Program-made: the position numbers and the translations under genes
NCBI GenBank assembly: GCA_963764165.1
Contig: CAVXRD010000001.1
Coordinates: forward strand, 1,309,959-1,373,958
Length of the DNA stretch: 64,000 bases
Origin: an uncultured Verrucomicrobiae bacterium
GTDB lineage: Bacteria > Verrucomicrobiota > Verrucomicrobiia > Limisphaerales > Palsa-1400
Direction of reading: 5' to 3'
The notes under the pieces: generated by a model
Databases searched by the model: none
What the model was told of the DNA's origin: nothing
The model's input: only the letters and a program-made list of their open reading frames with translations
Shown: positions 6,264 to 57,318 of the stretch, piece by piece
Position numbering within the stretch: the stretch's first letter is position 1
Layout: every line of letters begins with the position of its first letter

Positions 6264-6639
6264 ATGTCAGGAGGTAAATGATGCTCCCCTCGCGAAAAGA
6301 AACAAGTGGAAATCGGAATGGCGGGATTTGAAATTGAACAGGAGGAAGGCCGAGGGCGCGTGTTGGAAAGATTTCCACATCTCGCCAGTCGCAGTTCCCA
6401 AGTTTTGATATGTTCTTCGAAGTTGGCCACAACACGATTCGTTTTCGGTTGTTTGAGGGTTGCTGCGGCTGGTCTTCGACACAGCCGCGCCTGTCGGACT
6501 GCGTCCACCACCCACTTTCCACCACACCTTTTTCTCTGTTCTCTCGGTTTTCCTCCTGTTTAATTTCAGGTTCCCGCCAAAACTTCTTGCCAATCCCCCA
6601 TTCGCGTCGTAAACGTTATTTGCTCTTTGAAAACGGCGG

Positions 6640-6805
6640 ACGATTTTGTTCGCCTTGAAAATGCAGTCGAATGTCAGGGAACCCGGTGTGAATCCGGGGC
6701 GGTTGCGCCACTGTAACGGCTACTAACTCCCAATGCCACTGTTCGCAAGAACGGGAAGGCGGGAGTGAGGTTTGAGGCCGAAGCCAGGATACCGGTTTGA
6801 TTGTG
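6640..6805 (+). promoter_or_regulatory. cobalamin (B12) riboswitch aptamer
   Basis: Conserved core strings on the + strand: cagGGAAcccGGTGtgAAtCCggggcggttgcGCCACTGTaacgg (6675..6718), GCCACTGttcgcaagaacGGGAAGGCggg (6735..6763), and B12-box-like gccgAAGCCAGGAtACCGGtt (6777..6797). It lies 240 nt upstream of the 7041 start on the same strand. Confidence 0.8.
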
Positions 6806-6900
6806 CTCGTCGCGGCTGGAGATTTCTCCAGCCAGCTTCTCCGCAAAGAGAAGGATGAGGCCAGTCCGCCCGAACTGTCTTTGGGCGGCTCGTCGAATTT

Positions 6901-9225: not shown

Positions 9226-10092
9226 ATGAGGCGGCGACAGATCAGTCGTAGCGCAGGTTTCCAAACCTGCTGTATCGCAGGTTTCCAAGCCTGCATGCGA
9301 TGTCATGGCAAGCGGATTTGGAAATCCGCGACACAGCAGGTTTGGAAACCTGCGCTACGGCTTCGCCGGGCATTCACCTTGATTGAATTGCTCGTCGTCA
9401 TCGCCATCATCGCGATTCTTGCCGCATTGCTTTTGCCCGCGCTGGCAGGCGCCAAGGTTCACGCCAAGGGCATCCAATGCTTGAGCAACTTGCGGCAGAT
9501 GACCATCGCCGCGGAGGGTTATACCAGCGACAACGCCGGCTGTTATCCAATTGCGCAATACTGGGATGACGATCAAGGAACAACTGTTTGCTGGGACTTG
9601 ACAGTGGTTTATGATGTCAATAATAACGCTTCCGTGATTCCCGGCCTTCTTTGGGGAGGGCGCAGCAACATAAAAATTCAGCAATGCCCCTCGTTTGATG
9701 GCAGCGCCGATTGGGTGGACAATCCCTCCACCGGCTACAATTACAACACGAGCTATATTGGCCACGGCGAGGGAGAGGCGGTCGAAGAGCCGGCCGTCAT
9801 CTCCGCGCTCCAACATCCAGCGAAAACCGCCATTTTCGGGGACGGGCAGTATTCGGCGGGAGCGGACAAATTCATGCGCGCACCCTGGCCGAATCCCGGC
9901 GATGCGACCTTCAGCGGTCGATGGAGCGGCACGCAAGGTTTCCGCCACCAAAATCGCTGCAACGTCGGATTTTGCGATGGCCACGCCGAATCGTTGTCGG
10001 CGTGTTATACCAACAATGCCGACGGCGCGGCCAACGTCGCACCCGGCACGGGATTTCTTTCGGCGAGCAATTCGATGTATCAGCTCCAGTAA
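9226..10092 (+). CDS. prepilin-type N-terminal cleavage/methylation domain protein, DUF1559 / H-X9-DG family (pseudopilin-like)
   Basis: [43 protein letters not shown] prepilin helix. C-terminal H-X9-DG motif ([18 protein letters not shown]). The start is uncertain. ATG 9226 has AGGA 7 nt upstream. ATG 9295 is an alternative. The track start 9151 overlaps the upstream gene and is unlikely. Confidence 0.85.
9247..9359. repeat. 113-bp palindromic element with perfect 27-bp terminal inverted repeats
   Basis: cgtagcgcaggtttccaaacctgctgt (9247..9273) is the exact reverse complement of acagcaggtttggaaacctgcgctacg (9333..9359). Inner hairpins are gcaggtttccaagcctgc and gcggatttggaaatccgc. It lies inside the 5' end of the DUF1559 ORF. 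Confidence 0.8.
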
Positions 10093-21460: not shown

Positions 21461-22333
21461 CTATCTAGGGGCCGGAATCGCCGGCGGCACCACCCAGCCC
21501 GCGTGCCAATAAAGGTTCCACAGGCCAGTTAGCTTCACGTAAGCCGAATGTCCGTCGTAAAAGGTCATATTGATGCCGTTTTGCATGCTCGCGCTGGAAG
21601 TGATCGCCGTCGGAGCAACGCCGGGCGGCTGCGACCCGTGCCGCGCAATCGTGAATCGTCCCATGTCGAAGTTGGCATTGCCGTTGTAAAGATCCGCCGA
21701 GGGGCCTTCCGTTTCCTGCGGCCATCCGTCAACCCACATCGCATCGCCAAATATGGGCGTGTCGGTAACGTGCGCGACCGTGCTCGGGTTGGAGTATATC
21801 CAGCTCTCAGGCGCGCCTAGAAGGTCGGCAACAGAATACGTTCCGCTGTAGAGCCACCCGTTGTAAGCATAGCTTCCCGCATAATTAGTAACCGTCGGCG
21901 CCCATTTCCACATTTGAGTGGCATCGCCGTAGGTATATTCGGGGCTTGCCAGCGTCCGCGTCGTCGCCGCACTAGCCAGCGGGCAAACCCGGACCATGTT
22001 CACCTGCGCCTGATAACTCAGCAACATCGCCATCCAGAGATTCTCGTCTCCTGTGTATTGGAATTCCTTTCCAAAATCACCGACATACATGGAATGGGAG
22101 ACGCCCAATTGCTTGAGATTGCTGAGGCATTGCGTGCTGGACGCGCTCAATTTTGCCCGCGAAAGCGCCGGCAGCAGCAGCGCCGCTAGAATCGCGATGA
22201 TGGCAATCACCACCAATAACTCGACCAAAGTGAAGCCGCGCGGTCGAGGGATGAACCCCACCTCGGCGAATTTCATCGCATTCGGTGTTCGACCGATTGC
22301 GATAGGCGCAATGGCTAGCTCGTCGCGCGTCAT
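21461..22333 (-). CDS. prepilin-type N-terminal cleavage/methylation domain protein, DUF1559-like (pseudopilin-like)
   Basis: [43 protein letters not shown]; C-terminal [12 protein letters not shown]. The ATG at 22333 overlaps the upstream stop (ATGA). An alternative start is MKFAEVGF at 22276. The stop abuts the next gene's start (21460). Confidence 0.85.
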
Positions 22334-25861: not shown

Positions 25862-25997
25862 GAGAATGCCAATGAACCTGTCCGATAAGCGGGGGTGGGC
25901 AGCATCCCGGCAGGGATGCGAGCTTGTAGCCGGTGGTTGAGCGAAGCGATACCACCGGAAACACGTCCGATAAACCCCTGCATCCTGGAAGGATGCC
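25862..25997 (+). repeat. structured repeat family A (hairpin, CCGGTGGTTGAGCGAAGCGAYACCACCGG hairpin, hairpin), copy 1
   Basis: gcatcccggcagggatgc-gagcttgtag-ccggtggttgagcgaagcgataccaccgg-aaacacg...-gcatcctggaaggatgc. About 90% identical by eye to the reverse complement of 28997..29094. The 5' part (gagaatgccaatgaac...) also matches 28788..28896 in direct orientation. Confidence 0.75.
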
Positions 25998-26010
25998 AGC
26001 ATGAACACTT

Positions 26011-26209
26011 GCGCCGCCACGCGTGGCGGGGAGAGAGAAGGAGAGAGGGGCTTTTCATAAAAATTTCGCGAAGCAATGCGAGTTGTAAGCGTTTGGGTTT
26101 CAGTTGTTTGCTAGACTCCCCCTCTCCCTAACCCTCTCCCCACTTCGCAGGGCGAGGGAATCAGAACGAGTCCTTCTGTTATTTGAATGCCATAAACTGA
26201 GATGCGCCC
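26011..26209. mobile_element. partial second copy of the 263-bp MITE found at 32485..32747 (opposite orientation, one end missing)
   Basis: Shares ccgccacgcgtggcggggagagagaaggagagaggggc, ccctctccctaaccctctccccacttcgcagggcgagggaa and the terminal aaactgagatgcgccc (ends 26209) with the reverse complement of the 32485..32747 element. The other terminus is replaced by the family-A repeat. Confidence 0.55.
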
Positions 26210-26289
26210 GCGAGCAAAAAATTCACATTAGGTTCTTGCTTTTGTGTCTATTCCCGGCTTTAAGTTTCCCGGCCTGTTGTCGGAGATGC

Positions 26290-28749
26290 ATGTTCATGCG
26301 TGGTCGTTCACATTGGAATCTGCTGGTCGGCATAAGCTGCTTATGGCTTTTTCTGGCTGCGCCACAGGTGTCGCGCTCCCAATCGTTCACCAACTCCGCC
26401 ACTCTGGCGGCTTCGACGGATGGGACGAATTTGATCATCAACTACTCCCTAGCTGCGGCGCAGGGATGGGTGACGCTCTTTTCGGCCTCCACGCCGCAAA
26501 TGCTTCTCACCAACGCCAAACCGGTGTGCTTGGCCGCTGCGACCCCTTCGCTTACCGGGCGGTTCACGGTTCCCATTCATTCAAACGCGCCTGTGCAATT
26601 TTATCGGCTCCTTCTCGAGCAATGGCCCACACGCGGGCAGGTGCTCGTCTTCACAAACGGCCCTATTGACTTTGCCGCCATGCTGGCAACGTATGGCAGT
26701 ATCACGAACAGTTCTCAGCCGTTTTTTGAAGGCAATGATGGTGATATAGAACCGACGAATTCCATCCCGATGATTTATACTCAACCGGTGGCCGTCTGGA
26801 TTGACAACCTCGGAACCTATAATACAAACGGCGCGTTAGTCGGTCCGAATGAAGGACTTTTGATTGGGAAATACGCGCAAACCTCGCTTGACACATTCAG
26901 CGATTGCGATTCCGATGCCTGTCCGGTCGCTCCCCTGTATTCGGCGAGTAACGATTTCCGCGTTCTTTACATGGGCGATTCAAACGTGACTGCAAGAGAA
27001 GGAGTTCTCTGGAGTTCTCAAGCGCAACTTTATTGCGACATCAATCGGTACCGCGAGCAATTCCTGAACGACGCCTTTATTGACAAATTGCAGTTGACGC
27101 CACAGATCGCAGCTAACTTAAAATACCTTCAATACCGACCGGACTTGATTAATCCATTTGATCTAGATCCCGACATTTATGCCGAGCCAACTATGGAAAT
27201 GTACGAGTTTTCTTTGCCAGATGGCATTCAGCTTTTCCCTGCCGAGAATATCGAAAGCGTCATCGTCAGAACCCGTGGCCCATTCAATAACGACGCATCT
27301 CTCCCACCGATTTCAGTTGCTTATGATTCAGGGGCCACCGTGGGGAATTATGCAACGCTGGCGGCGAATTGGATTCTCGGCACAAACACGGGAACTCCTT
27401 CAGATGCGTTTTACGGCTCAGCCGAACCGGGCGCGAATTGGGAGAACGATGTCCTTTCCCCTTTCGTCAACGGCCTATCTGCTTGGGTTGCCTATCGTCT
27501 CACCGGAACGAATGAGGTGTATACCCAACTTTCGTACATGCTCCGTATCTGGAATGGCTCGGCCTGCGGCGGGACCTGGATTCCCTGCGACAGAGGCCAA
27601 AACATCAGCAATGTAATGATGTTCAACGCCGCAGAAACGGACGCGGAAGGCGTCTTTCCCTTCACAGTGGCGGAAAATGTGACCTCTTACGACGGCCCTG
27701 TAGCCTCCGATCTTGCGGCTCTTTACTTCGGGGCCATTTTTTATGATATTGCCAATGAATCTGGATTGGGCTTGTACAAAACCGACTTGTTAATCTGGAA
27801 GACGCTCTCCCTTGTCACGAATGATCCGAACAGTTTGAGCATGGTTCAGTTTGGGGCCTACGTGCAGCAAGCGGCCCGCCTGCTTTGGCCCGACCTGCGC
27901 GAAGCCTATTCCGGTATGAGCCTTTACGAAAATGACCTCGTTGACGTCCTTGCCTCACGCGGGATTCCTATGAATGGGGTCTCCGATTTTCAGTCCAATT
28001 TACCGCCTTATATCGGCTCATATCCGGATACGCTGGAATACGACGGTCCCGGATTCGGTTCTAAGCATCCTGACATCCAAGCTCAAGTGAATGCCTACGG
28101 CGTTTATCAAGTCAATTACAACACTTTCACTTATTCAAACCCCGCGTCCTACGTCGCCTACCAGATCTATAAACACTCGAAGTATGGACCCTGCGATGAA
28201 GTCGCCATAACTGACGGAACCTTCACCATCAACCAGAACCCACCTTTCAATTGGTCCTATAATTACGACGGCACATTTTACACCGAGCTCTCGAATCGAT
28301 TCGGAAATTTGATTCTTTTTCTCCCAGGTACGGAGGTAAATTTTTTACGGAGCCGCCAGCGCTGCCCCGATGAGGCAACGGGTTCTTATGCCGAGGATGT
28401 GCAACCTTTTGGTTTTATTGTCACCCAAGCCATACCGAATGGATTTTCTTTCACTGTCTCCGCCCTGTCCTCAAACAGTGTTTTCAAAACCTATCAACTG
28501 ACGATTGTTGATCCCTCCACTAACACCCTGGGCGCCGCGAGTTACGCCTGGGCGTTCACGGATTACATGGGAAACATAGCCACCGTCTCCGGAAGCAGCG
28601 TCGAATACGACGCCAACATTGACGAGCCTTTCACCCTCAGCATTACCCGCACGCGCGGGAGCCAGAGCGACACGATTACCATGAGGGAGCGCGGCAATGA
28701 CCTCGACCGTGCCGGGGGCAATGCTTTCGTCAGGAACCTGGTGCCATAA
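26290..28749 (+). CDS. exported 819-aa protein of unknown function (N-terminal FYR-type beta domain)
   Basis: Start moved to MFMRGRSHWNLLVGISCLWLFLAAPQVSRSQS (signal peptide). The 62 upstream codons of track ORF 26104.. translate repeat DNA (PLSLTLSPLRRARE). The N-terminal domain ends ...RFTVPIHSNAPVQFYRLLLEQ. No HExxH or other catalytic motif was recognised. The gene looks AT-richer than its neighbours by eye. Confidence 0.8.
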   Translation: MFMRGRSHWNLLVGISCLWLFLAAPQVSRSQSFTNSATLAASTDGTNLIINYSLAAAQGWVTLFSASTPQMLLTNAKPVCLAAATPSLTGRFTVPIHSNAPVQFYRLLLEQWPTRGQVLVFTNGPIDFAAMLATYGSITNSSQPFFEGNDGDIEPTNSIPMIYTQPVAVWIDNLGTYNTNGALVGPNEGLLIGKYAQTSLDTFSDCDSDACPVAPLYSASNDFRVLYMGDSNVTAREGVLWSSQAQLYCDINRYREQFLNDAFIDKLQLTPQIAANLKYLQYRPDLINPFDLDPDIYAEPTMEMYEFSLPDGIQLFPAENIESVIVRTRGPFNNDASLPPISVAYDSGATVGNYATLAANWILGTNTGTPSDAFYGSAEPGANWENDVLSPFVNGLSAWVAYRLTGTNEVYTQLSYMLRIWNGSACGGTWIPCDRGQNISNVMMFNAAETDAEGVFPFTVAENVTSYDGPVASDLAALYFGAIFYDIANESGLGLYKTDLLIWKTLSLVTNDPNSLSMVQFGAYVQQAARLLWPDLREAYSGMSLYENDLVDVLASRGIPMNGVSDFQSNLPPYIGSYPDTLEYDGPGFGSKHPDIQAQVNAYGVYQVNYNTFTYSNPASYVAYQIYKHSKYGPCDEVAITDGTFTINQNPPFNWSYNYDGTFYTELSNRFGNLILFLPGTEVNFLRSRQRCPDEATGSYAEDVQPFGFIVTQAIPNGFSFTVSALSSNSVFKTYQLTIVDPSTNTLGAASYAWAFTDYMGNIATVSGSSVEYDANIDEPFTLSITRTRGSQSDTITMRERGNDLDRAGGNAFVRNLVP

Positions 28750-28787: not shown

Positions 28788-28896
28788 AGAAGTGCCAATG
28801 AACTAACTAAAGCGCCGGAGTGCGTCTGCGGAAGATGCCGGAGGCATCACAGCTTGCAGCCGGTGGTTGAGCGAAGCAACACCACCGGACACAACG
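28788..28896 (+). repeat. structured repeat family A, copy 2 (direct relative to copy 1)
   Basis: gagaagtgccaatgaac...gatgccggaggcatc-acagcttgcag-ccggtggttgagcgaagcaacaccaccgg-acacaacg. Collinear with 25862..25966. Confidence 0.7.
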
Positions 28897-28996
28897 ATAA
28901 TAATGACTCATCCCGGCAGGGATGACAGCGATGGGGTGCTGATGCGGCAGCCCATTTGACGAAACGGCGTGCCAAGTCCGCATTTCCGATGAGGCT

Positions 28997-29094
28997 GGCA
29001 TCCCTCCGGGATGCAGGAGGATTTTTGGGGCGTTTTTCCGGTGGTGTCGCTTCGCTCAACCACCGGCTACAAGCTCGCATCCCTGCCGGGATGC
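28997..29094 (-). repeat. structured repeat family A, copy 3 (inverted relative to copies 1 and 2)
   Basis: Its reverse complement reads gcatcccggcagggatgcgagcttgtagccggtggttgagcgaagcgacaccaccggaaaaacg...ctgcatcccggagggatgcc. That is nearly identical to 25902..25997. Confidence 0.75.
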
Positions 29095-29114
29095 TAACAA
29101 TTGAGTCCTGAAAT

Positions 29115-32100
29115 CTATCGCCCCAAATCAATCGTCAGCTTCACTGCCGCGCCACGCTCGGGCAGGCTTTCCCATTCGATCATCCCGGCGATGCTCTCAA
29201 TTCTCTTGCGCATGTTGGGCAGCCCGTTTCTGAGAGCAGACGATTCCGCACAGTTAGTCGCCGAATCCTGCGCAAAGCCCTTCCCGTTGTCGCGAATCAT
29301 CAGGATGAGCTTGCCGCGCTCGATCGCAATTTGAATCATGACCTCCGTGGCGGCGGCGTGTTTGACAATGTTATTCAGCGCCTCTTTGACGGTTAGAAAC
29401 AAATTATGCCGCACCTCGGCTGTCAAAAGAATTTCTGGCAGGAATTCCGGAACTTCCAACCGGCACGCGATCTTGGCAGTCTTCAAATACTCTTCGGCGA
29501 AGTTGCAGGTGTAAGTCACAAACTTCTCGAGGCTGTCGTTCGTTGGATTGACCGCCCAGACCACTTCATCCATGCGGCGCGTCAAGCTGCGCGCCTTGGC
29601 GGTGATCTTCTGCATGTCGGCCAGCACTTGAGCCGGTGAAGCGGACGGTTCCTGCGCAAATTCGCTCAGCAGCGCAATCTCCGTCAGGTTGGCTCCCAAG
29701 TCGTCGTGAATGTCACGCGCGATGCGCGAGCGCTCCCTTTCCACGGCACGTTCGCGCTCGGCCTGCTCCAAACGCCTGCGAACACGGCGGCGTTCGGAAT
29801 AGCGCACGGTCGAGAGAATGGCGGCAAGCCCGCCTGCCGTAGTCAATCCTAGAAACCACTTGGTCTCCCAGAAGTACGGGGCGGCCGCAATTTCAATCGT
29901 CGCCCCGGTATTGTTCCACACCCCATCTTCATTGCAGGCGATGACGTGGAATTGATAATTTCCGGGAGGAATGCGGCTGTAGACGGCGGTGCGTTTTGTT
30001 CCTGCGTCTTCCCAATCTTTGTCCAGATTTTCCAAACGATACTTGAATCGAACCCCATAAGGCGCAGCGAAGCTCAGAGCTGTATATTGAAATTCAACCC
30101 GGCGGTTGCCAGGCGCGAGAGTTATAATGCGCGGCAGCGTAAGCGTCGGCGTGGCATATCCGCTCGGCTGCGAATCCGCAGGCGTGTTTGTCAGGACGTC
30201 TTCGATCACGACGGTGGGTGGAAGCGTATTCCAGCCCACCGTTGCCGGATCCACCACGACCACTCCCTTCGTCGTGGGGAACCAAAGCCGGCCGTCGGGA
30301 GACTTGTAGCTCGAAGGTTGAAATCCACCCTGGCATTCAACGCTGGGAAGACCATCCTCCAAGGTGAAGGCGGCGCAACGCAGCGGTTCAACGCTGCCGG
30401 AGCCCGCCAACTCTTTCTTGCTGACTCTGAATACTCCACCGTAGGACCCGAGCCACAGATTCCCCAAGCTGTCGTCTTGAATCTGGCAAATCACATTATT
30501 GAGCAATCCGTTCTTGGTCGACCAGGTTTTGAAGTGTCCATTTTGCCAGCGGCTCAATCCGCCCCGGCATGATCCAACCCACAGAGTTCCTTCTCCATCA
30601 ACATAGAGGCACCAGATGGAATCGCTTTCCAGACCGTCTTTCCTGCCAAAGTGAGTGAACTTCCCGTCCCGCATTCGATACAACCCGTCCTCGCTGGTCC
30701 CCACCCACAAGTTGCCATCGTGATCTTCCACGATAGCCCGAACGTCGAGCGTGGCGGAAGTTCCCGGAATCTCGACCACGGTTCGTTCCGAATTGTGGAG
30801 GCGCGTAATGCCGCCAAAAGCCTGCTGGCCAATCCACAAATTGCTCTTGGAATCCTCAAAGATTGCCAGCACTTGCCAGCCGATGGTCTGCCCATCTGAC
30901 AGCCCGCTAAAACTGGCGCCATCCCACTTGTAAAGCCCGTCCCATGTGCCAGCCCAGACGGTTCCTCCGTGGTCTTGCACCACCGACCAAACATGCCCGT
31001 TTTTTAGTCCCTGGTTCGCGCCATAATGTTGAATTTCGCCGTTCCGGCAATGATCGAGTCCATCGCCATCGGTGCCAATCCAGACTCCGCCATCCTGCGC
31101 CCCCGCCACTGCCATCACTTGGTCGCTGGCCAATCCCTGCTTGCTTCCGAGCGTTTGAAATTTGGGGCGCTTCAAGCGGCACAGGCCACCTCCTTCCGTT
31201 CCGGCCCAAATATTCCCCTCTTTATCCTCCATCACGCAGCGAACGAAATCGGTGGGCAACCCATTATGCGAAGTGACGTGAAGCATCTGGCCATTGGTTT
31301 CATACCGAAACAAACCGTCGCCCAGAATCGCAACCCAAAGGCGGTTTTCCGCATCCTCGTACAAATCGTAGATCGGACGATTGGTCCATGAATAACTGCC
31401 GAGGTCAGCGGTCCAACGGCCTTCGGCGAATTTCCGCAATTGATTGTTGGCGGCGGCCCAAACTCCACCGGAGCGGCTGGAGGCCAGGAAATCCACTTGG
31501 AAACCGGCTTCGTTTGTCTGGCCCCACCTCGATTGAAACCGCCCATTCTGCAATACCGCCAGTTCGCTGGTGGTCCCGACCCAAATGCGGCCGCGATCAT
31601 CGCAGGCCAGCGCGTGGACCGCGCGGCTCGACAGATTCCAATCGTCCGAATCCACCTTGGACTGGCCGTTGAGGAATTTGATGAGCTGCCATTCGCACGA
31701 AACCTCCCACAAGGCGCCATCATGATCGCCGCAAAAATTGTGCGCGTATTCATGCGTGGTGCCGCGGCCGCGGGTTTCGAAGGCTGCGAATTGGCCGTCG
31801 CGAAGCCGCAAGAGCCCGCCGTGTTCCGTCCCCACCCAGAGCGTGCCGTCGTCGGTGCTCAGAAGCTGGACGATGCGGCTGTTTTTGATGGCCGGAGTGT
31901 TGTTCTCGTCGAAAACCTGAAATTTGACACCGTCAAAGCGAACCAGCCCGTTTTGTGTTCCCAGCCACAGGAATCCATCGGACGATTGCGAGATGCAGGT
32001 TACAGTGCTCTGGGGCAAGCCATCCTCAACCCGCCACGTTTTTGATTGGAATTCGGAGAGTGGCGCTGATTCGCCCGCGCGCAAATCATCCGCCACCAGG

Positions 32101-32189
32101 AAGAGCAGCATGCAGGAGATCCATTGAATGAGAATCCGGTCTGCCCACCTTGGCGGCGAGCCGGATTTGGGGGAAAGCTGAATAAACAT
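29115..32189 (-). CDS. sensor histidine kinase with periplasmic two-component-regulator beta-propeller repeats + Y_Y_Y domain, HisKA_3 + HATPase (NarL-partner type)
   Basis: Start chosen at MFIQLSPKSG...ILIQWISCMLLFLVA (32189). Many propeller repeats of the type GL....V..I..D..G.LW.GT..GL. Y_Y_Y segment VEFQYTALSFAAPYGVRFKYRLENLDKDWEDAG...YSRIPPGNYQFHVIACNEDGVWN. TM WFLGLTTAGGLAAILSTV. HisKA_3 box ERSRIARDIHDDLGANLTEIALL. ATPase IRDNGKGF. Confidence 0.88.
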   Translation of the reverse strand: MFIQLSPKSGSPPRWADRILIQWISCMLLFLVADDLRAGESAPLSEFQSKTWRVEDGLPQSTVTCISQSSDGFLWLGTQNGLVRFDGVKFQVFDENNTPAIKNSRIVQLLSTDDGTLWVGTEHGGLLRLRDGQFAAFETRGRGTTHEYAHNFCGDHDGALWEVSCEWQLIKFLNGQSKVDSDDWNLSSRAVHALACDDRGRIWVGTTSELAVLQNGRFQSRWGQTNEAGFQVDFLASSRSGGVWAAANNQLRKFAEGRWTADLGSYSWTNRPIYDLYEDAENRLWVAILGDGLFRYETNGQMLHVTSHNGLPTDFVRCVMEDKEGNIWAGTEGGGLCRLKRPKFQTLGSKQGLASDQVMAVAGAQDGGVWIGTDGDGLDHCRNGEIQHYGANQGLKNGHVWSVVQDHGGTVWAGTWDGLYKWDGASFSGLSDGQTIGWQVLAIFEDSKSNLWIGQQAFGGITRLHNSERTVVEIPGTSATLDVRAIVEDHDGNLWVGTSEDGLYRMRDGKFTHFGRKDGLESDSIWCLYVDGEGTLWVGSCRGGLSRWQNGHFKTWSTKNGLLNNVICQIQDDSLGNLWLGSYGGVFRVSKKELAGSGSVEPLRCAAFTLEDGLPSVECQGGFQPSSYKSPDGRLWFPTTKGVVVVDPATVGWNTLPPTVVIEDVLTNTPADSQPSGYATPTLTLPRIITLAPGNRRVEFQYTALSFAAPYGVRFKYRLENLDKDWEDAGTKRTAVYSRIPPGNYQFHVIACNEDGVWNNTGATIEIAAAPYFWETKWFLGLTTAGGLAAILSTVRYSERRRVRRRLEQAERERAVERERSRIARDIHDDLGANLTEIALLSEFAQEPSASPAQVLADMQKITAKARSLTRRMDEVVWAVNPTNDSLEKFVTYTCNFAEEYLKTAKIACRLEVPEFLPEILLTAEVRHNLFLTVKEALNNIVKHAAATEVMIQIAIERGKLILMIRDNGKGFAQDSATNCAESSALRNGLPNMRKRIESIAGMIEWESLPERGAAVKLTIDLGR

Positions 32190-32315
32190 TCTTGACACTT
32201 TGAGATTCAAGCCAGAGCGCGCGGCGCCGACCGTCCGCCCGAATTCTAGGGCCTCAGTCCGGCGAATATCGACAATAAAATGCGCCATCCGCCTTGGCCC
32301 CTCTTCGTTATCTTC

Positions 32316-32343
32316 ATAATACCACACAAGAGTGTAATTTCAA
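32316..32343 (-). promoter_or_regulatory. candidate sigma70-type promoter carried by repeat family B (TTGAAA-16 nt-TATTAT on the minus strand)
   Basis: The minus strand reads aaggTTGAAAttacactcttgtgtggTATTATgaag, which lies ~120 nt upstream of the kinase start at 32189. The paralogous copy (42690..42720) has a weaker version (catgta...cattat). Motif spotting only. Confidence 0.25.
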
Positions 32344-32484
32344 CCTTAATTGACAAAAGAGATTTTTCGGGCTTATGTTTCTCCCTGTCGCCGCCAGGGC
32401 GTGTTCTTTGACATTTTGCGGATTCCCTCGCCAGGGTATAGGGCAGCGGTGGTTTTTTAACGGGCTGTTCGGCAAGGCAGCTAA

Positions 32485-32747
32485 GGGCGCATCTCACTTT
32501 TTGGCAATCCCTTGCCGACGAAACGCGGTTTCCCTCGCCCTGCGAAGCGGGGAGAGGGTTAGGGAGAGGGGCGGTTAGGAAGCGACTTAAATCCATCGGC
32601 CTCAATGCGCATCGCCTCGCCTAGCATTAATGAGTTGCCCCTCTCTCCTTCTCTCTCCCCGCCAAGCGTGGCGGGGAGAGAGCGATCACTTGTCGCTCTG
32701 CGGAGCTTTTTGCAGAAGTCCGCCCTCACTAAAACTGAGATGCGCCC
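32485..32747. mobile_element. 263-bp MITE with terminal inverted repeats GGGCGCATCTCA(C/G)TTTT and 9-bp target-site duplication GGCAGCTAA
   Basis: The left end gggcgcatctcactttt (32485..) and right end aaaactgagatgcgccc (..32747) are inverted repeats. ggcagctaa occurs on both flanks (32476..32484 and 32748..32756). The paralogous family-B copy at 42507..42720 is uninterrupted at the equivalent position (an empty site). The interior is built of smaller GC-rich palindromes. Confidence 0.8.
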
Positions 32748-33054
32748 GGCAGCTAAATAAGTCATGATCGGGCATTGCGCGCTATTGCACCCTATTGCAC
32801 CCTTGGTTATTTGCGACTTGGCGGGTGCCCTCGCGGCCACTTAAATAGGGCCAACGCTTCCGCAGCGAAAATTTTGGGATGCCATACACTGCACCGTGTT
32901 TCATTGAATCGGCTCCAGCCGGAAGAAATGTAGCGGGTCTGTTGCGGGTCTGTAGCTATTTTTGTTGCGGGTTATCTGGTTGATAATCAACGATGTAGCG
33001 GGTGTAGCGGGTTTTTAGAGATTATAGCACATTCAATGCTGGAAGCACGGTGCC

Positions 33055-35901
33055 TTGCTCGGACTCTCCATGCGGTCTTCATTCGCGTCCAAAAAAGCTC
33101 GACCTGTCCGGCTCCGAGGGATTCATTATGCTGAAATAAATACGCCCCAACATCTTTCTGCGGAAAAAAGGATTCATGGCGCAACCCAAGGAGCGCGTCC
33201 GCTCGGGGCCACCTGTCTCTTCATGGCTTGCCTGATTTTGTGTGTGGCCGTTGGCAGAGCGCCTGGCGCGGTGGATTATATTTGGGTTGAAGGAGAGAAG
33301 CCGGTGACGCAGACGATGACCCGGCATCCCTGGTGGTATGACAAGGTGAAGAAGTACCAGCTTTCAGGCGGCGATTTCATATCCAATTGGAACGAAAAGC
33401 AGGCGGGGGAGGCGGCTTATGCGGTGCAAGCGCCAGCGGACAAGGATTACGTCTTTTGGATTCGCGCCAATCCGGTCGGGACGAAACTTTCCTACAAACT
33501 CGACGGCGGGGAATGGGCGTTGATCGATATGAACGGGGCTCAAGACACGGTCAACATCGCCGACGATGGAATGATTGATTTGCGTTTTTTGGCGTGGGCC
33601 AGAGTGGGCAAAGTCAGGCTGGCGCACGGACCGCATCGCATCGCTTTTCGGATGGACAGCGAGAATAACCATCACGGGATGCTGGATTGTTTTGTTTTCG
33701 CGAATGATACCTTCACACCCAGCGGAACTCACAAGCCGGGGGAAGACGCCAAGATTGCAGATGCGGCCAGCGAAGGAACTTGGGCATTCCATCCGCCGCG
33801 CGATGAGTTTTCTCCCGACGCCCTGCTGGACCTGCGTTCGCTGAATGAACATATCGCCGGAGAAAATGGCTTCGTGGGGCGCTCGCCAGAGGGAAGCGAT
33901 TTTGTGCTGGGCGATGGCAGGCCCGCGCGGTTTTGGGCCGTCAATGACGCGGCGTTTGGCACCGATCTCGCGCGTCACGCCCGCTTTCTAGCCAAGCGCG
34001 GCATCAACATGGTTCGTTTTCACTGCAACATCACCCCGACTGGGCATGACTTGATGGCCATTGATGAGCCGGATCGCGAGAAATTGTGGAAAGGAGTCGC
34101 GGCCATGAAAAAGGAAGGCATCTATGTGACTTACTCGCCGTATTGGGCGGGCGCGTCGCGCACAAAACCCGCGCTCGGATACCTTGACGATGGAGGCAAT
34201 CACAATTGGGGCTTGCTGTTTTTCGACGCCAAGCTCCAGGGGGCCTACAAGGCCTGGCTGAGGCAAGTATTGACAGAAAAAAACCCCTACACGGGCATTC
34301 CGCTGGCCGAGGATCCAGCGCTTGCGATCATCCAGATTCAGAACGAGGATTCGCTTTTGTTCTGGACGGAGCAAGGCATGAAGGTAGAGGCGCACAAGGA
34401 ATTGCGCCGCCAGTTTGCCGCGTTCGCCGCGAAAAAGTACGGCTCTCTTGAAACCGCGAAGTCGGCGTGGCAGAACGCTGAGCCATCCCCTGACCAGGAC
34501 GCTCCGGATGACTTTGCGCACCATGACGCCGCGTTGTACATCACATGGCAGCTGACGCAGCGCGGGGGAAGCGCCGGCCAGCAACAGCGCTGCGCCGATC
34601 AAATGCAATTCTTGACAGAGACGATGCGCCATTTCAATCAGATGATCGGCGATTACCTGAAAAACGAGCTTGGCTGCAAACAACTCGTCAACGCGGGCAA
34701 TTGGCGCACCGCCGACAACGTCACCATGCTTGATGCAGAGCGATGGTCTTACTCCGCCAACGACGTCATGGCGGTCAACCGCTACTACGACGGCGCCCAC
34801 GAAGGGGCGAACAGCGGCTGGGCGATCTGCACCGGCGACAAGTTCACAGATGATTCAGCATTGCTGCATCCGCGGGAATTGCCGCTGACACTCAAACAGG
34901 TGGCTGGATTTCCGATGATGGTTACCGAGAGTTCGTGGGTTCCGCCGCTGAGCCACCAATCCGAAGGGCCATTTCTAGTGGCCGCGTATCAATCGCTGAC
35001 CGGCATCGACGCCTATTTTTGGTTCGCGACGGGGGACGAAGATTGGCGGCAGCCGGGCTCGGCCAATGGATTTATGCCGTCAGAAGGCAAATGGGTTTGC
35101 GCCACGCCAATGCTTATGGGCCAATGGCCGGCAGCGGCGTTCATGCACCGCCTTGGTTACATCCAGCAAGGCGCGCCAGTCGTTTCCGAGCAGCGTCCAT
35201 TGGATGACCTGTGGCATCGGCAAATGCCAATCATCGCCGAGGACGCAGGCTACGACCCGAATCGTGACCAGGGCGCCCCAATGAAGCAGTCGAACATCAA
35301 AGCTGGCGTCAATCCCCTCGCCTACTTAGTCGGTCCCGTTGTTGCGAAGTATGGCGGGCCATCGGCTCCGAATAAAGCCGCGGACTTCAGCAATTATATT
35401 GACACCGAGCGCAAATCCATCCGCTCCATCACCCGCGAAATAACCCTGAACTACGGCAGCGGATGGTGCAGGCTGGACACACCCAAGGCACAAGGCGTGA
35501 CAGGTTTTCTGAAGGCTGCAGGCGTCTCGAAAATGGCCGATGTCGAAATTCGCTGCACGAATGATTACGCGACGGTGCTGGTCGTCGCGATGGACAACAA
35601 GCCGCTCAAGGACTCCGGCAAAATTCTGGTTCAAGTGGGAACGACCGAGCGCCCGCTCGGATGGAAGACAAAGCCCGCCACGGTTTTGGGCCGCGCCGGG
35701 GAGGAAGTTGTGAATTACGGCCACCCGCCGTGGATGATAGTCCGCGCCGATGTGGAAATTTCCGTGGCAAACCCGGGGCTCAAAACCGCCCGTGTGCTGG
35801 ATTGCAACGGAATGCCTGTGGGAGTGATTCCATTGGAGTCATTTGGCGGACGCGCGACGTTTAAATTTCCACCCGACGCGCTCTACGTGGTGCTTCAGTA
35901 G
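33055..35901 (+). CDS. exported glycoside hydrolase, clan GH-A TIM barrel (GH5/GH2/GH42-like) with N-terminal beta-sandwich
   Basis: 948-aa ORF. GINMVRFH, IYVTYSPYW and IIQIQNEDSLLFW (the N-E acid/base motif of clan GH-A). A hydrophobic signal-like segment ATCLFMACLILCVAVGRAPGA suggests the true start is near 33223 or a non-ATG codon just upstream. The start is uncertain. Confidence 0.7.
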   Translation: MLGLSMRSSFASKKARPVRLRGIHYAEINTPQHLSAEKRIHGATQGARPLGATCLFMACLILCVAVGRAPGAVDYIWVEGEKPVTQTMTRHPWWYDKVKKYQLSGGDFISNWNEKQAGEAAYAVQAPADKDYVFWIRANPVGTKLSYKLDGGEWALIDMNGAQDTVNIADDGMIDLRFLAWARVGKVRLAHGPHRIAFRMDSENNHHGMLDCFVFANDTFTPSGTHKPGEDAKIADAASEGTWAFHPPRDEFSPDALLDLRSLNEHIAGENGFVGRSPEGSDFVLGDGRPARFWAVNDAAFGTDLARHARFLAKRGINMVRFHCNITPTGHDLMAIDEPDREKLWKGVAAMKKEGIYVTYSPYWAGASRTKPALGYLDDGGNHNWGLLFFDAKLQGAYKAWLRQVLTEKNPYTGIPLAEDPALAIIQIQNEDSLLFWTEQGMKVEAHKELRRQFAAFAAKKYGSLETAKSAWQNAEPSPDQDAPDDFAHHDAALYITWQLTQRGGSAGQQQRCADQMQFLTETMRHFNQMIGDYLKNELGCKQLVNAGNWRTADNVTMLDAERWSYSANDVMAVNRYYDGAHEGANSGWAICTGDKFTDDSALLHPRELPLTLKQVAGFPMMVTESSWVPPLSHQSEGPFLVAAYQSLTGIDAYFWFATGDEDWRQPGSANGFMPSEGKWVCATPMLMGQWPAAAFMHRLGYIQQGAPVVSEQRPLDDLWHRQMPIIAEDAGYDPNRDQGAPMKQSNIKAGVNPLAYLVGPVVAKYGGPSAPNKAADFSNYIDTERKSIRSITREITLNYGSGWCRLDTPKAQGVTGFLKAAGVSKMADVEIRCTNDYATVLVVAMDNKPLKDSGKILVQVGTTERPLGWKTKPATVLGRAGEEVVNYGHPPWMIVRADVEISVANPGLKTARVLDCNGMPVGVIPLESFGGRATFKFPPDALYVVLQ

Positions 35902-35908: not shown

Positions 35909-35985
35909 TGGTCGGGGCGGTGGGATTTGAACCCACGACCTCTTGGTCCCGAACCAAGCGCGCTACCAAGCTACGCTACGCCCCG
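35909..35985 (-). tRNA. tRNA-Pro (anticodon CGG), CCA encoded
   Basis: The minus strand reads CGGGGCGTAGCGTAGCTTGGTAGCGCGCTTGGTTCGGGACCAAGAGGTCGTGGGTTCAAATCCCACCGCCCCGACCA. It has a 7-bp acceptor stem CGGGGCG/CGCCCCG, an anticodon stem CTTGG/CCAAG with loop TTCGGGA, and a T-arm GTGGG TTCAAAT CCCAC. Confidence 0.92.
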
Positions 35986-42345: not shown

Positions 42346-42506
42346 AACGCAGGGCAGACGCATCGTAATTCTTGTAATCTGCTTCGGATTTAAGATGCGT
42401 CTCCCCCTTGGTCACAAACGTTCTTCACAATTTAGTGGCGGATGGATATGTCTGTGTGTTCCTCTGCGCACTCATCTTCCCTGCGCGACCGTTCTCTGTC
42501 GCGAAA

Positions 42507-42720
42507 AACCAAGGGTGCAATAGGGTGAAATAGCGTGCAACGCCCCGATCACGGCTTATTTAGTTCCCGCACCCGACAGCCCGTTAAAAAACCAACTGCA
42601 TCCTGGCGCGGAAATCCGCAAAATATTAAAGAACACGCCCTGCTGGCGACAGGGAGAAGCATAAGGCCGAAAACCTCTCTGTCAATTAAGCATGTAATTG
42701 CACGCTGCTGTGGCATTATG
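42507..42720 (+). repeat. repeat family B (~215-bp gene-upstream element), intact copy
   Basis: See 32311..32808. This copy lies directly upstream of, and in the same orientation as, the PadR gene (start 42783). Confidence 0.7.
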
Positions 42721-44139: not shown

Positions 44140-45162
44140 TCATCGATGCGCGGAGCAATGCTGTTGGAGCCACACGATATCCTGATCGTTTGGCACCGAA
44201 TCGGATGTCCACGAATAATAGGTATTGGGAATCATAGGGGGTTCGGTTCGGGGATCCAGCCATCGATGAACTTCCGAGTGTCCGTCCGCAAACGAAATGC
44301 CGCTGCAGCCGTTATGATAGTTGGCCGGAATATTGGCGAATCGGGCATTGGCGTTTGTGGCCGTCATCGACACGACAAAATAGGCGTCATTAATGGAGTC
44401 CGCTCTTTCGTCGATAAACACGAACGCATTTGCCGGACCGGGATTCTGAATGCTCGAGAGCTTGCCGGGATTGTTAAAATCAGCAACCGGGGCGGTGCTA
44501 TAATCGCCGCCATTCATCCTCATGTTCATGGAAACAGAGCGGACGCGGGATTGGATGGACCCGTTGATATAGACCGTGCTGGGATCCGAAGGGCACACAT
44601 AGAGCGGCAACGATTTGGAATAGGGCCAAAGCAAGCCTTTCGGACTCATTAGATTAGTGACGCTGGTATTGTCAGAGTCGGTCGGGTTGGACCAATCCAT
44701 CCAGCCTGCCGCCCAACTGTTCGTGTTGTAGGTCAAAACGTCGTCACCCAGCGTGTTAGTGACCAGCAAATCGGCGGAATCGCCGGCGTATAACGTCCAG
44801 GCGATGCTTAATTGTTTCATGTTGGATGAGCATTTGATTCCCTTCGCCTGTTCTTTGGATTTCGCTAATGCCGGAAGCAGCAACGACGCCACGATGGCAA
44901 TGATGGCAATAACCACCAGCAATTCGATCAGGGTGAATGCTTTCGTGTCCGCAACCCTGAGCCGGATGGTTTGGGGAGCGCACGCGCCTCGCGTGCCGTG
45001 TTCCGCGCCCTCGCGGAACACATTCGATGCCTGAACCGTTCGGTTGGACGAATTTGCCAAAGGCGACTGGCGAGGCGCCAGTCGTCCACACCCGAGGGCG
45101 GGTGTGCTCCCCGTGAAATGAACCGCATCGTCCCGGCTAAGTTTTTGCCATGATGCCTTCAT
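44140..45162 (-). CDS. prepilin-type N-terminal cleavage/methylation domain protein, DUF1559 / H-X9-DG family (pseudopilin-like)
   Basis: [46 protein letters not shown]9-DG motif [17 protein letters not shown]. The 80-codon leader before the prepilin helix contains a GC-rich palindromic element (44973..45021), and no other in-frame ATG/GTG lies closer, so the start is uncertain. Confidence 0.8.
44973..45021. repeat. GC-rich REP-like element (GGGGAGCGCACGCGCC core plus the palindrome GTGTTCCGCG..CGCGGAACAC)
   Basis: ggggagcgcacgcgcctcgcgtgc matches ggggagcgcacgcgcccccgcgtgc at 52010..52034. It is followed by the hairpin gtgttccgcgccctcgcggaacac (44998..45021). Confidence 0.55.
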
Positions 45163-47779: not shown

Positions 47780-47870
47780 CCGCGAAAGGGCGGTGGTTAG
47801 CCTGCATTCGAATCTTGCAGGCCGCGAGCCCTTACGCGGCGGACGCCGGGTCAGTGGACCTGGCTAAACC

Positions 47871-47930
47871 GAATCCCGGCGGGATGCCGGATTGCAGCCG
47901 GTGGTTGAGCGGCAGCGACACCACCGGATT
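47871..47930 (+). repeat. structured repeat family A, copy 4
   Basis: gaatcccggcgggatgccggattgcagccggtggttgagcggcagcgacaccaccggatt. Confidence 0.65.
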
Positions 47931-48048
47931 ATGATTTAGAACTGGCATGCACCCCGAAAGCGGGTGCCAGAATCCGGCGTAAAAAACGACGCACGGTATT
48001 TGGACGGCGATGGGACGCCTTTCAGGGTCCGGGAGATTTTTGACATTG

Positions 48049-48107
48049 TTTCCGGTGGTGTCGCTGCCGCTCAACCACCAGCTACAATCTTCGATGCCTC
48101 CGGCATC
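48049..48107 (-). repeat. structured repeat family A, copy 5 (inverted partner of copy 4)
   Basis: tttccggtggtgtcgctgccgctcaaccaccagctacaatcttcgatgcctccggcatc, the reverse orientation of the family core. Confidence 0.65.
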
Positions 48108-48190
48108 CGTAGCGGCATCTCCAGCGGGCGGCGTCCATGGGTTTCGCATTCTTAAATCGCTTGTTCTAACCATCTATTCCTGCTCTCATT

Positions 48191-49607: not shown

Positions 49608-49775
49608 AAATTAAATAATCTGGAACGCCCGAATGCTGGAAAAGAGGCCGGAGTCGTTTTGCAAGTGATGGGCGGTGAGATGAATTAAGGCTCAGTGCCG
49701 GATCCGAAGTCACGATGCGTGTGAATCCGCCTTCATCTCTTTTCCTGAGTTCGGTCGTTCCAGATTCAATTTTTC
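49608..49775 (+). repeat. repeat family C (~170-bp self-complementary element), copy 1, downstream flank of the toxin-antitoxin pair
   Basis: aaattaaataatctggaacgcccgaatgctggaaaagag...ctcttttcctgagttcggtcgttccagattcaatttttccc. The two ~29-nt arms are inverted repeats. It is collinear with 50448..50622 at about 75% identity by eye. Confidence 0.75.
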
Positions 49776-49823
49776 CCATTTTTTCTCCAAAAAACCACGG
49801 CGTCCCGCATTGACTTGCATTGG

Positions 49824-50447: not shown

Positions 50448-50622
50448 AAAATTAAATAATCAGGAACGCCCGAACGCAGGAAAAGAAGGCCGAAGTCCTT
50501 TCGCAGGTGATGGATGGTGAGACTAGTTTCGGCTCAGCGCCTGACCCGAATCAACGGCGCGCATGGACGACAAGTTCAGTCTCTTTTTCTGCGTTCGGGC
50601 GTTCCTGATTCAATTTTTCCCC
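50448..50622 (+). repeat. repeat family C, copy 2, upstream flank of the toxin-antitoxin pair
   Basis: aaattaaataatcaggaacgcccgaacgcaggaaaagaa...tctttttctgcgttcgggcgttcctgattcaatttttcccc. The arms at 50457..50485 and 50582..50610 are near-perfect inverted repeats. Confidence 0.75.
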
Positions 50623-55632: not shown

Positions 55633-57318
55633 ATGTCGAAGATACTTTTCATCATTGTTTTCAGCGGCATCATTGAATTCTTGACCGCGACACCCGCCGC
55701 CGCAGACGGGACCAATGGCGCGTGCGTCACGCCGCCCTCGGGTCTTGTTGGCTGGTGGAAGGGGGAAGACAACGCGAATGACAGCGCGGGCGCCGACAAC
55801 GGCGCGCTCTCGCCAACCGGCGCGACTTACGCGCCGGGGATGGTTGGGCAGGCGTTCCATTTTGACGGCAGCAACGGCTTCGTGCAAATTCCAGATTCCG
55901 CGGCTCTTAAGCCCGCCGCCGTCACGATTGAAGCGTGGGTCTGGCTGGACCCAGGTTTGACCAACCACGGCGGTGAACAAATCGTCTTCAAGAAAAACAC
56001 CTGGTCCGCCTATTTCGAAGGTTACAGCCTGTTGAAATACGGCGACGGAATTTCCCCCGACGTTTTCGAGTTTTGTGTTTCAAGCCACGGCGACCAGGTG
56101 CCCGTATATGGGCTAACAGCCGTGCAGCGCGGGGCTTGGTATCACGTCGCCGCTACTTACGACGGCAGCGAAGCCATCCTTTACGTCAATGGTGTTGCGG
56201 ACGGTTCGGCAACGGCAGGCTTTCCTCTGGATTACGACACCACGCCGCTTTTCATCGGCACGACGGGCACGTGGCCACCATACTTGAGCATGTTCGGCGG
56301 CGTTATTGATGAGGTTTCCTTATACGATCGGGCATTGTCGCCCGAGGAGATTAAGGCCCTCTACAGCGCGGACTCCGCGGGCAAATGCCCACCCGGCTGC
56401 ACGACGCCGCCATCAGGATTGGTGGCGATGTGGAAGGGCGAAGACAATGTCATTGACAGCACCGGCACGAACAATGGCACGCTCTCGGCCTCCGGCGCAA
56501 CCTACGGGCCGGGAATGGTTGGGCGGGCTTTCCGTTTTGATGGAACCAATGGCTTTGCGCAAATCCCCGACTCACCCGTTCTGAAGCCCGCCGCGGTCAG
56601 CATCGAAGCGTGGGTCTGGCTCGATCCAAGCCTTCCCGCCGAGCAAGGCGGAGAGCAGATCGTGTTCAAAAAAAATACCTGGTCCGCCTATTTCGAAGGC
56701 TACAGCCTCTTGAAATACAGTGACGGAATTGACCCCGATGTCTTCGAGTTTTGTGTTTCGCGAAACGGCGATCAAAGGACCCTTTATTCGCAGACGATTG
56801 CGGAACGCGGAGTTTGGCATCACGTCGCTGCGACTTATGACGGGACAAACATCGCGCTTTACATCAACGGCGAAGTGGAAGATTCGGGAGTGGCGCCATT
56901 CCCGCTGGATTATGACACCACTCCACTTTTCATCGGCACCACGGGCACGTGGCAGCCTTACCTGAACATGTTCGGCGGCATGATTGACGAGGTTTCCATT
57001 TACAGCCGGGCGCTGTCGTCCAACGAAATTGCCGCCATTTACTCCGCTGGCGCTTATGGCAAGTGCGTGCCGGAAACGGCGCAAGACAAATTCTTAAATC
57101 CCCAAAATGCTGGCGGTAATTTGAATGCCGAATTCGCGGGCGCGCCGGGAGTGACGTACACGATTGAATCCGCCGTCAGTCTTGGCGGGCCCTGGACCAA
57201 GGTGGCGAATTTTCAATCACCCTTAACCGATCAAGGATTGGGCGCGGGGGTTTTTGCATTCTCGACCCCCGCCACAAACAGCGCGCAGTTTTTCCGCGCA
57301 GTATGTCCTGCTTATTGA
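55633..57318 (+). CDS. exported protein with two tandem LamG / concanavalin-A-like (Laminin_G_3) modules and an FYR-type C-terminal domain
   Basis: Start MSKILFIIVFSGIIEFLTATPAAA with GGAGGA 5 nt upstream. Each module carries ...FDGSNGF.QIPDS..LKPAAV.IEAWVWLDP...W.HVAATYDG....LY.NG...IDEVS.Y.RALS. The C-terminus is ...YTIESAVSLGGPWTKVANFQSPL...NSAQFFRAVCPAY. Confidence 0.8.
   Translation: MSKILFIIVFSGIIEFLTATPAAADGTNGACVTPPSGLVGWWKGEDNANDSAGADNGALSPTGATYAPGMVGQAFHFDGSNGFVQIPDSAALKPAAVTIEAWVWLDPGLTNHGGEQIVFKKNTWSAYFEGYSLLKYGDGISPDVFEFCVSSHGDQVPVYGLTAVQRGAWYHVAATYDGSEAILYVNGVADGSATAGFPLDYDTTPLFIGTTGTWPPYLSMFGGVIDEVSLYDRALSPEEIKALYSADSAGKCPPGCTTPPSGLVAMWKGEDNVIDSTGTNNGTLSASGATYGPGMVGRAFRFDGTNGFAQIPDSPVLKPAAVSIEAWVWLDPSLPAEQGGEQIVFKKNTWSAYFEGYSLLKYSDGIDPDVFEFCVSRNGDQRTLYSQTIAERGVWHHVAATYDGTNIALYINGEVEDSGVAPFPLDYDTTPLFIGTTGTWQPYLNMFGGMIDEVSIYSRALSSNEIAAIYSAGAYGKCVPETAQDKFLNPQNAGGNLNAEFAGAPGVTYTIESAVSLGGPWTKVANFQSPLTDQGLGAGVFAFSTPATNSAQFFRAVCPAY

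Follow-up and report, generated by a model that had tools for sequence, protein, structure and literature searches.

A window of 64,000 nucleotides (the whole stretch of DNA analysed here, from contig CAVXRD010000001.1 of the uncultured Verrucomicrobiae bacterium assembly GCA_963764165.1) contains, between a histidine-kinase gene (29115..32317, -) and an open reading frame (ORF) at 33055..35901 (+), a repeat designated B1 which is split by a 263-bp element. An earlier note on this DNA had described the element as a miniature inverted-repeat transposable element (MITE) with inverted termini and a 9-bp target-site duplication, nested in a second repeat whose paralog, here designated B2, preserves the empty site, and had pointed to a second, one-ended copy of the MITE. 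These observations were all reproduced, and the coordinates of the features are compiled in the table. The ends of the element link it to insertion sequences (IS) of the ISKra4 family, and members of this family of ends show a positional preference for TTG motifs resembling -35 boxes.

Table. Features of the MITE, its truncated copy and its host repeat in the window.
Feature	Position	Strand	Remarks
Truncated, one-ended MITE copy	26011..26209	-	Intact terminus 26193-26209; 77% identity over 193 aligned nt
Promoter-like motif outside the intact terminus of the truncated copy	26236..26264	+	TTGCTT, 17 nt, TTTAAG; TTG at outward offset 27
Host repeat B1, split by the MITE	32315..32817	+	32315-32484 plus 32748-32817; aligns with B2
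Target-site duplication, left copy	32476..32484	+	GGCAGCTAA; in the window only here and at 32748-56
MITE, 263 bp, hairpin-rich body	32485..32747	.	Stops in six frames; fold z = -5.8; no transposase similarity
Left terminal inverted repeat	32485..32506	+	17 nt pair with the right end; 22-nt family consensus GGGCGCATCTCAGTTTYTTGCA
GC-rich hairpin module 1 (CCCTCGCCCTGCGAAGCGGGGAGAGGGTTAGGGAGAGGGG)	32532..32572	+	Generic palindrome, widespread without these termini
GC-rich hairpin module 2 (GCCCCTCTCTCCTTCTCTCTCCCCGCCAAGCGTGGCGGGGAGAGAG)	32637..32682	+	Partial pairing with module 1; kept in the second copy
Right terminal inverted repeat	32726..32747	-	Terminus match and family logo
Target-site duplication, right copy	32748..32756	+	GGCAGCTAA
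Promoter-like target by the right end	32775..32803	+	TTGCGC 32775-80, 17 nt, CACCCT 32798-803; TTG offset 28, the mode of the family
Host repeat B2, uninterrupted	42498..42720	-	Empty site TTAGTTCCC at 42560-42568; 83% identity to B1

The 263-bp element and its host repeat

The 17-nt inverted termini of the MITE, GGGCGCATCTCACTTTT at 32485-32501 and AAAACTGAGATGCGCCC at 32731-32747, pair at 16 of 17 positions. Their sole mismatch falls on position 13, which is polymorphic throughout the family of related ends described below (G 72%, C 28%). With up to three mismatches allowed, the terminus 17-mer occurs four times in the 64 kb as compared with 0.40 occurrences expected from shuffled sequences, and three of these four are element ends; the fourth, at 54839 with two mismatches, lies inside a coding region without a surrounding element and was discarded as a chance match. 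The 9-mer GGCAGCTAA is present exactly twice in the window, each copy abutting a terminus. The element at 32485..32747 is a real non-autonomous transposon with a clean 9-bp target duplication.

Stops in all six reading frames leave the MITE without coding capacity. The single strand folds as a long DNA hairpin with a minimum free energy of -66.4 kcal/mol (z = -5.8 versus shuffled sequences), in agreement with the earlier description of its interior as a set of GC-rich palindromes that produce pseudo-peptides in ORF callers; these pseudo-peptides ('PLSLTLSP...') correspond to frame -1 of the MITE. Two called ORFs of 119 and 93 aa, 32246..32605 (-) and 32559..32840 (-), cross the element and are almost certainly spurious; as they overlap repeat DNA, they should not be annotated as genes. 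Rfam searches of the whole window, and of 32250-33100 at a permissive threshold, gave for the MITE and repeat B only sub-threshold, hairpin-like microRNA chance matches.

Repeat B2 passes through the equivalent of the junction point with a single GGGAACTAA (TTAGTTCCC, 42560-68), and this paralog is the empty site for the insertion of the MITE into B1. The earlier note had considered that the duplication might turn out to be part of the host-repeat consensus; the single 9-mer in B2 places the duplication outside this consensus. One may also assume the reversed polarity, namely that the ancestral repeat B carried the MITE, which then disappeared from B2 through precise excision or when the 9-bp repeats recombined. 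Recombination between short direct repeats can remove an insert while keeping one repeat, and two B copies alone provide no outgroup for the polarity. Such a loss would still need an original insertion with a 9-bp duplication, however, and would leave the nature of the element unchanged. Moreover, Mutator-like and IS256-type elements use circular intermediates and the donor site is normally not restored (Guerillot et al. 2014, PMC3942029), and the 9-mer of B2 differs from the duplicated one at two of nine positions, in line with the 17% by which B1 and B2 diverge overall. We regard the loss of the MITE from B2 as quite improbable and retain its insertion into B1 as the explanation for the two states of the repeat.

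Repeat B itself was found in two copies only in the window, which are 83% identical and lie between divergent, unrelated genes: B1 between the histidine-kinase gene and a 948-aa ORF, and B2 between a PadR gene and ORFs upstream of a leuC-like gene. On the strand pointing away from the kinase and PadR genes, the repeat contains a conserved TTGACA-N16-18-TATGYT followed by a hairpin (CCCTGTCGCC..CAGGG), and it also carries two tandem copies of CTATTGCACC. No Rfam match was obtained for repeat B, and a BLAST search against all fetched loci revealed no further copies. The ORFs that follow the two MITE copies (819 aa and 948 aa) were compared and are not paralogs.

The 64 kb hold one complete and one truncated copy of the MITE, and within the window the GC-rich interior motifs are confined to these two. 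The truncated copy keeps one terminus and about 195 nt of the interior; the last ~67 nt and the other terminus are gone. Only a few bases separate the truncated end of this copy from a solo arm of family A, a palindromic repeat family of no relation to the MITE. The motif TTGCTT-N17-TTTAAG facing the intact end is located upstream of an ORF with the likely start ATG 26290. An 881-aa ORF called from TTG 26104 on the + strand starts inside the truncated MITE (overlap 26104-26289); its true start is probably ATG 26290, which has GGAG just before it.

The earlier note had read the locus as evidence of recent non-autonomous transposition. The element is indeed non-autonomous, but its recent insertion is not demonstrated, because identity between the complete and the truncated MITE copy is as low as 77%. 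The intact 9-bp duplication is of little use for dating; a perfect 9/9 duplication is expected in about one of five cases for an insertion as old as the split between B1 and B2, at 17% divergence.

Shared ends in other genomes and the ISKra4-type transposase

Related ends were collected by an exact-match scan with GGGCGCATCTCASTTT, which covered one genome per species and returned loci from genomes other than that of the window. At least 117 loci were obtained, almost all from metagenome-assembled genomes (MAGs) of Verrucomicrobiota (Opitutae, Verrucomicrobiia and Limisphaerales). For pairing, two mismatches were allowed in the partner terminus; the numbers of pairs, solo ends and flanks reported here and below are those among the matches listed. 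The 43 paired matches comprise 40 short elements of 82-629 bp, a range which includes the 263 bp of the window MITE, two IS of 1473 bp and one IS of 1495 bp. Their flanking 9-mers are identical in 14 pairs and differ by one mismatch in nine and by two mismatches in three, so that 23 of the 43 pairs show at most one mismatch, whereas control 9-mers from 20 nt further out had at least four mismatches throughout. A sequence logo of 136 termini revealed conservation which begins at G1, fades after position 22 and is absent outside the element. This 22-nt conserved end, GGGCGCATCTCAGTTTYTTGCA, is common to the MITEs and the IS copies, and the family ends are GGGCGCATCTCA ends, while the interiors are unrelated between genomes, each being a different set of GC-rich palindromes. 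Members in other genomes have both the conserved termini and the flanking duplications, and the concern raised in the earlier note that other copies might lack them is thereby removed. The ends define an ISKra4-type MITE family which occurs mostly in Verrucomicrobiota MAGs.

Solo termini are also common among these loci (L001-L117): they account for 74 of the 138 exact termini, and 40 of them have at least 700 nt of inward sequence. Pairs of termini about 2 kb apart in L035 and L076 were not accepted as elements; since they show neither a duplication nor a transposase, each pair probably represents two independent solo ends.

Identical 1473-bp elements with the same ends were found at two loci of one MAG, L062 (4013-5485) and L063 (1885-3357), where they are flanked by the perfect 9-bp duplications GTGGCGGAC and CCCATTGGG. 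The first 16 nt of the window MITE ends are identical to the ends of these IS. Each IS contains a single ORF encoding a protein of 473 aa, which matched the NCBIfam model NF033572 'ISKra4 family transposase' with 226 bits (cutoff 205) over model positions 10-422 of 422, as compared with 67 bits for the ISLre2 model (cutoff 200) and a score likewise far below the cutoff for ISH6. Partial or frameshifted transposase copies adjoin the same terminus at L104, L016, L006, L002, L090 and L034, among the loci listed. The nearest annotated plasmid genes encode cyanobacterial ISKra4 transposases with about 29-31% identity; because of this low identity, the L062-type transposase represents a distant ISKra4 lineage.

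The ISKra4 family belongs to p-MULT4, a group of prokaryotic Mutator-like DDE transposons (Guerillot et al. 2014, PMC3942029). Elements of the p-MULT groups have inverted repeats of 18-39 bp and direct repeats of 8-9 bp, and the ISKra4-group entries of Table S1 start with GGGCG... or GGGTG... and have direct repeats of 9 (PMC3942029). Verrucomicrobia are absent from the phyla listed in this 2014 survey (PMC3942029). The family described here has 9-bp direct repeats and inverted repeats within the 18-39 bp range which start with GGG and end with C, and its ends are shared with an autonomous IS, but the IS copies lie in other genomes. The expectation of the earlier note that the 9-bp duplication would point to a transposase family has held good, as the same termini bound a 1473-bp ISKra4-family IS with 9-bp duplications.

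It is very improbable that the MITE was moved by a transposase of another family which makes 9-bp duplications (IS4/Tn5-like, IS1, IS256 or ISLre2) and that the shared ends are coincidental or borrowed. Duplications of 9 bp are by themselves not diagnostic of one family, and the L062 transposase shows weak partial matches to the models of ISLre2 and ISH6, which are related Mutator-like families; these scores are, however, far below the respective cutoffs. The sole ORF of the IS with which the MITE shares its first 16 nt passes the ISKra4 equivalog cutoff, the 22-nt consensus and the duplication length are common to MITEs and IS, and GGG ends combined with a direct repeat of 9 agree with the ISKra4-group entries of Table S1 (PMC3942029). 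We therefore assign the ends of the MITE to the ISKra4 family.

The body of the MITE has a different relationship. The MITE sequence shows no tblastn similarity to the cognate ISKra4-type transposase. The 23-mer core of its interior, GGGGAGAGGGTTAGGGAGAGGGG, was found in at least 120 metagenome contigs, with matches to 40 nt of the MITE at 95-97.5% identity, and any ISKra4-type terminus was present at only 4 of 120 of these loci. As the termini are nearly absent from the 120 module loci, the MITE body is cargo which consists of a generic hairpin module rather than of IS remains. The metagenome scan with the 23-mer was accordingly rejected as a source of more MITE copies, since its loci are almost all devoid of termini and represent the generic module instead. 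The 40-nt hairpin module at 32532-32572, CCCTCGCCC(C/T)GCGAAGCGGGGAGAGGGTTAGGGAGAGGGG, is near-identical in at least 120 metagenome contigs (L119-L238), many of which have very GC-rich flanks.

A non-DDE origin, in which a REP-like palindrome block was placed by a RAYT/REPIN-type mechanism or by recombination and the termini and 9-mers are fortuitous, could draw on the at least 120 metagenome contigs with the interior module without these termini and on the unrelated REPIN-like family A in the window, but is effectively refuted by the family-wide duplications and the terminus logo: both junctions, and no other site of the window, carry the exact 9-mer, the 17-mer occurs far more often than by chance, and sharply bounded copies of these termini, together with 9-bp duplications, surround unrelated interiors in dozens of genomes as well as a transposase gene.

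Position of the elements relative to promoter-like motifs

The target position was analysed in 136 outward-reading flanks by recording TTG at each offset from the element end. TTG is found at outward offset 28, that is 27 nt outside the terminus, in 30 of the 136 flanks; at other offsets the mean is 2.5 (sd 1.7, maximum 8), and the Poisson tail for offset 28 is about 3e-22. The more complete motif TTGnnn-N16-18-TAnnnT occurs 12 times at offsets 27-29 as compared with about 0.1 per offset elsewhere. The 30 TTG-bearing flanks derive from many different MAGs and are mutually unrelated in sequence. Both window copies fit the pattern, the complete copy with offset 28 exactly and the truncated copy one base closer, and the TTGCGC motif next to the complete copy is kept in B2 as TTGCAC. 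Judged from their sequence and position, the TTG motifs at the window copies may represent working promoters.

With respect to the TTG, no orientation bias of the two end variants was detected (Fisher p = 0.83). Long outward ORFs after TTG-bearing flanks (81% vs 75%) were assessed by a crude test which does not discriminate at this G+C content. Among solo ends, 27 of 74 (36%) have TTG at offsets 27-29, which is about twice the per-end rate in paired elements; the promoter-facing end may be preferentially retained when copies decay.

We consider it very likely that the window element is a non-autonomous MITE with ISKra4-type ends which was mobilised in trans and inserted through a 9-bp staggered cut at a preferred spot upstream of a promoter. 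According to this mechanism, the MITE would retain only the ~22-nt ends of an ISKra4-family IS, a prokaryotic Mutator-like DDE transposon of p-MULT4, and an ISKra4-type transposase supplied in trans would bind both ends. Integration via the staggered cut would generate the GGCAGCTAA duplication, preferably at a site which places the element end 27 bp upstream of a sigma-70-type -35 TTG, a distance made up of the 9-bp duplication and a further 18 bp, and either MITE end could face the promoter. The promoter would be left intact and separated from the upstream DNA by 272 bp, and the body, not being derived from the IS, would be made of GC-rich hairpin modules which also exist without these ends. 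Such a 27-bp TTG preference would explain the placement of the MITE inside B1, 27 bp from TTGCGC, as well as that of the truncated copy, 26 bp from TTGCTT-N17-TTTAAG and before the next gene. The transposase would have acted in trans also in the window organism, and one can speculate that the target is recognised via the transcription machinery, as proposed for related elements by Guerillot et al. 2014 (PMC3942029).

Several observations weigh against this explanation. The 64-kb window contains no ISKra4 transposase (best tblastn E = 1.6), and for this reason we infer mobilisation in the window organism only from other genomes. TTG at offsets 27-29 is present on at least one side in only 23 of the 47 paired elements; the positional preference is not absolute. 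The CACCCT next to the window element is a poor -10 by the E. coli consensus. For further copies of the sub-family to which the window MITE belongs, defined by the terminus, a gap of 25-55 nt and the first palindrome, a metagenome scan returned 0 matches, and a protein-database search with the longest pseudo-peptide across the MITE gave no candidates. Finally, the 27-bp spacing is unlike the 13-17 bp published for ISKra4-group elements, and because of this difference the promoter-targeting part of the explanation rests on motif statistics.

Some ISKra4-group IS were reported to insert 13-17 bp upstream of sigmaA promoters, with either side facing the promoter when the inverted repeats are near-perfect (PMC3942029). 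As promoter-upstream insertion was shown by only 13 IS of the 2014 survey (PMC3942029), the 13-17 bp spacing is not family-defining for ISKra4. In the elements analysed here a fixed-distance TTG signal was found at 27 bp instead; the behaviour of this lineage is the same in kind as the published promoter-upstream insertion, about one helical turn further out. On balance, and with considerable reserve, we favour the view that the ends belong to an undescribed Verrucomicrobiota ISKra4 lineage accompanied by a swarm of MITEs with only its 22-nt ends, and that these elements home exactly 27 bp upstream of a sigma-70-type -35 TTG, about one helical turn beyond the 13-17 bp of TnGBS, ISLre2 and ISKra4. 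The fixed 27-bp relation to -35-like motifs is the only part that a specialist might find new.

At the locus itself, a 272-bp insert just upstream of a probable promoter divides the intergenic DNA that separates the histidine-kinase gene from the ORF at 33055. More generally, a MITE family found mostly in Verrucomicrobiota MAGs is now linked to its transposase family, and the flank statistics add a case, based on data, in which a prokaryotic Mutator-like element homes close to promoters, at a previously unreported spacing. If this holds true, the element ends would be natural promoter markers in Verrucomicrobiota, where promoters are almost unmapped, and the different spacing would constrain how Mutator-like transposases read the transcription machinery. 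The lineage could then serve as a comparison for the proposed interaction of transposase and RNA polymerase, if transcription-start data confirm the promoters.

Other features of the window and comparison with known systems

Apart from the MITE and repeat B, the window contains several further repeats. Family A is represented at 25901-26003, 28834-29095 and 47870-48109 by arms of about 100 nt with three hairpins each, the hairpin motifs being GCATCCCGG..GGGATGC and CCGGTGGT..ACCACCGG. Two of the copies are arranged as inverted pairs with a REPIN-like appearance, and the solo arm at 25901-26003 abuts the truncated MITE. This arm shares 91% identity with the reverse-strand arm at 28994-29095, and the two bracket the ORF 26290-28749. 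One relative of family A was found, at metagenome locus L202. A palindromic element of about 170 nt is present in two copies, 49608-49777 and 50449-50621, which share 87-90% identical blocks and lie 841 nt apart. Another palindrome, at 9244-9362, is near-perfect with 59-nt arms built on GCAGGTTTCCAAACCTGC units; the sequence following it (9370-9500) matches loci of three further MAGs (L038, L039, L102) with 76-86% identity and could represent an additional conserved repeat or an RNA.

Rfam matches above the gathering score were a cobalamin riboswitch at 6629-6814 (+), a tRNA at 35912-35985 (-) and a group II intron catalytic domain at 61443-61518 (-). The DNA beside the intron match (60147-61419 and 63040-63933) is 76-79% identical to the Verrucomicrobiota MAG loci L050 and L104. 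Positions 55729-57066 hold a tandem duplication of two copies of a ~675-nt unit with 74-78% identity, which probably encodes repeated domains within a gene. Two ORFs have a 68-nt stretch in common (22167-22234 and 44870-44937), which encodes a putative hydrophobic prepilin-type N-terminal segment. Such segments are typical of Verrucomicrobiota and Planctomycetota proteomes, which agrees with the verrucomicrobial origin of the window deduced from its nucleotide matches to Verrucomicrobiia MAGs and from the taxa in which the family of ends occurs. The exact protein of the PadR gene was otherwise found in a single 2.5-kb Logan contig (ERR11523676).

Classical bacterial MITEs, such as the Correia/NEMIS elements of Neisseria and the IS-derived MITEs of cyanobacteria, are short elements with terminal inverted repeats and a target duplication but no transposase; they are intergenic, fold into long hairpins and depend for their mobility on a cognate IS acting in trans. 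Correia elements duplicate TA. The family described here is unlike these MITEs in its ends and in the length of its duplication, and its members share 22-nt ends only, with genome-specific palindromes as bodies.

The interior modules of the MITE resemble REP and REPIN sequences, including the same pseudo-peptides in ORF callers. REP/REPIN elements, however, have no such terminal inverted repeats and no 9-bp duplications, and the sharp inverted termini and 9-bp duplication of the window element exclude it from this class; its palindromes are cargo within DDE-type ends.

Among Mutator-like elements, Pack-MULEs belong to the same transposase superfamily, are non-autonomous with 9-bp duplications and prefer the 5' ends of genes (PMC3942029). 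They differ from the window MITE in being eukaryotic and in having long inverted repeats, captured gene fragments and no fixed distance to a -35 box.

TnGBS and ISLre2 (p-MULT3) encode Mutator-like DDE transposases, generate 9-bp duplications and insert upstream of the -35 box of sigmaA promoters, which are left intact (PMC3942029). The TnGBS integrative conjugative elements and ISLre2 are thus like the window MITE in their Mutator-like nature, the 9-bp duplication and promoter-upstream insertion, but belong to another transposase family, insert in a single orientation at a distance of 15-17 bp from the -35 box, and are found mostly in Firmicutes. In contrast, the MITE family shows no orientation bias and lies about one helical turn further upstream.

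The closest resemblance is to the ISKra4 family itself, with GGGCG... ends, inverted repeats of 18-39 bp and the 9-bp duplication, an autonomous partner of about 1.47 kb with a single ~470-aa transposase passing NF033572, and an insertion point which keeps a constant distance to a downstream sigma-70-type promoter that either end may face. The window element differs from it in being non-autonomous (263 bp, no ORF) with a body unrelated to the IS, and the preferred distance to the -35 box is 27 bp here as compared with the 13-17 bp reported.

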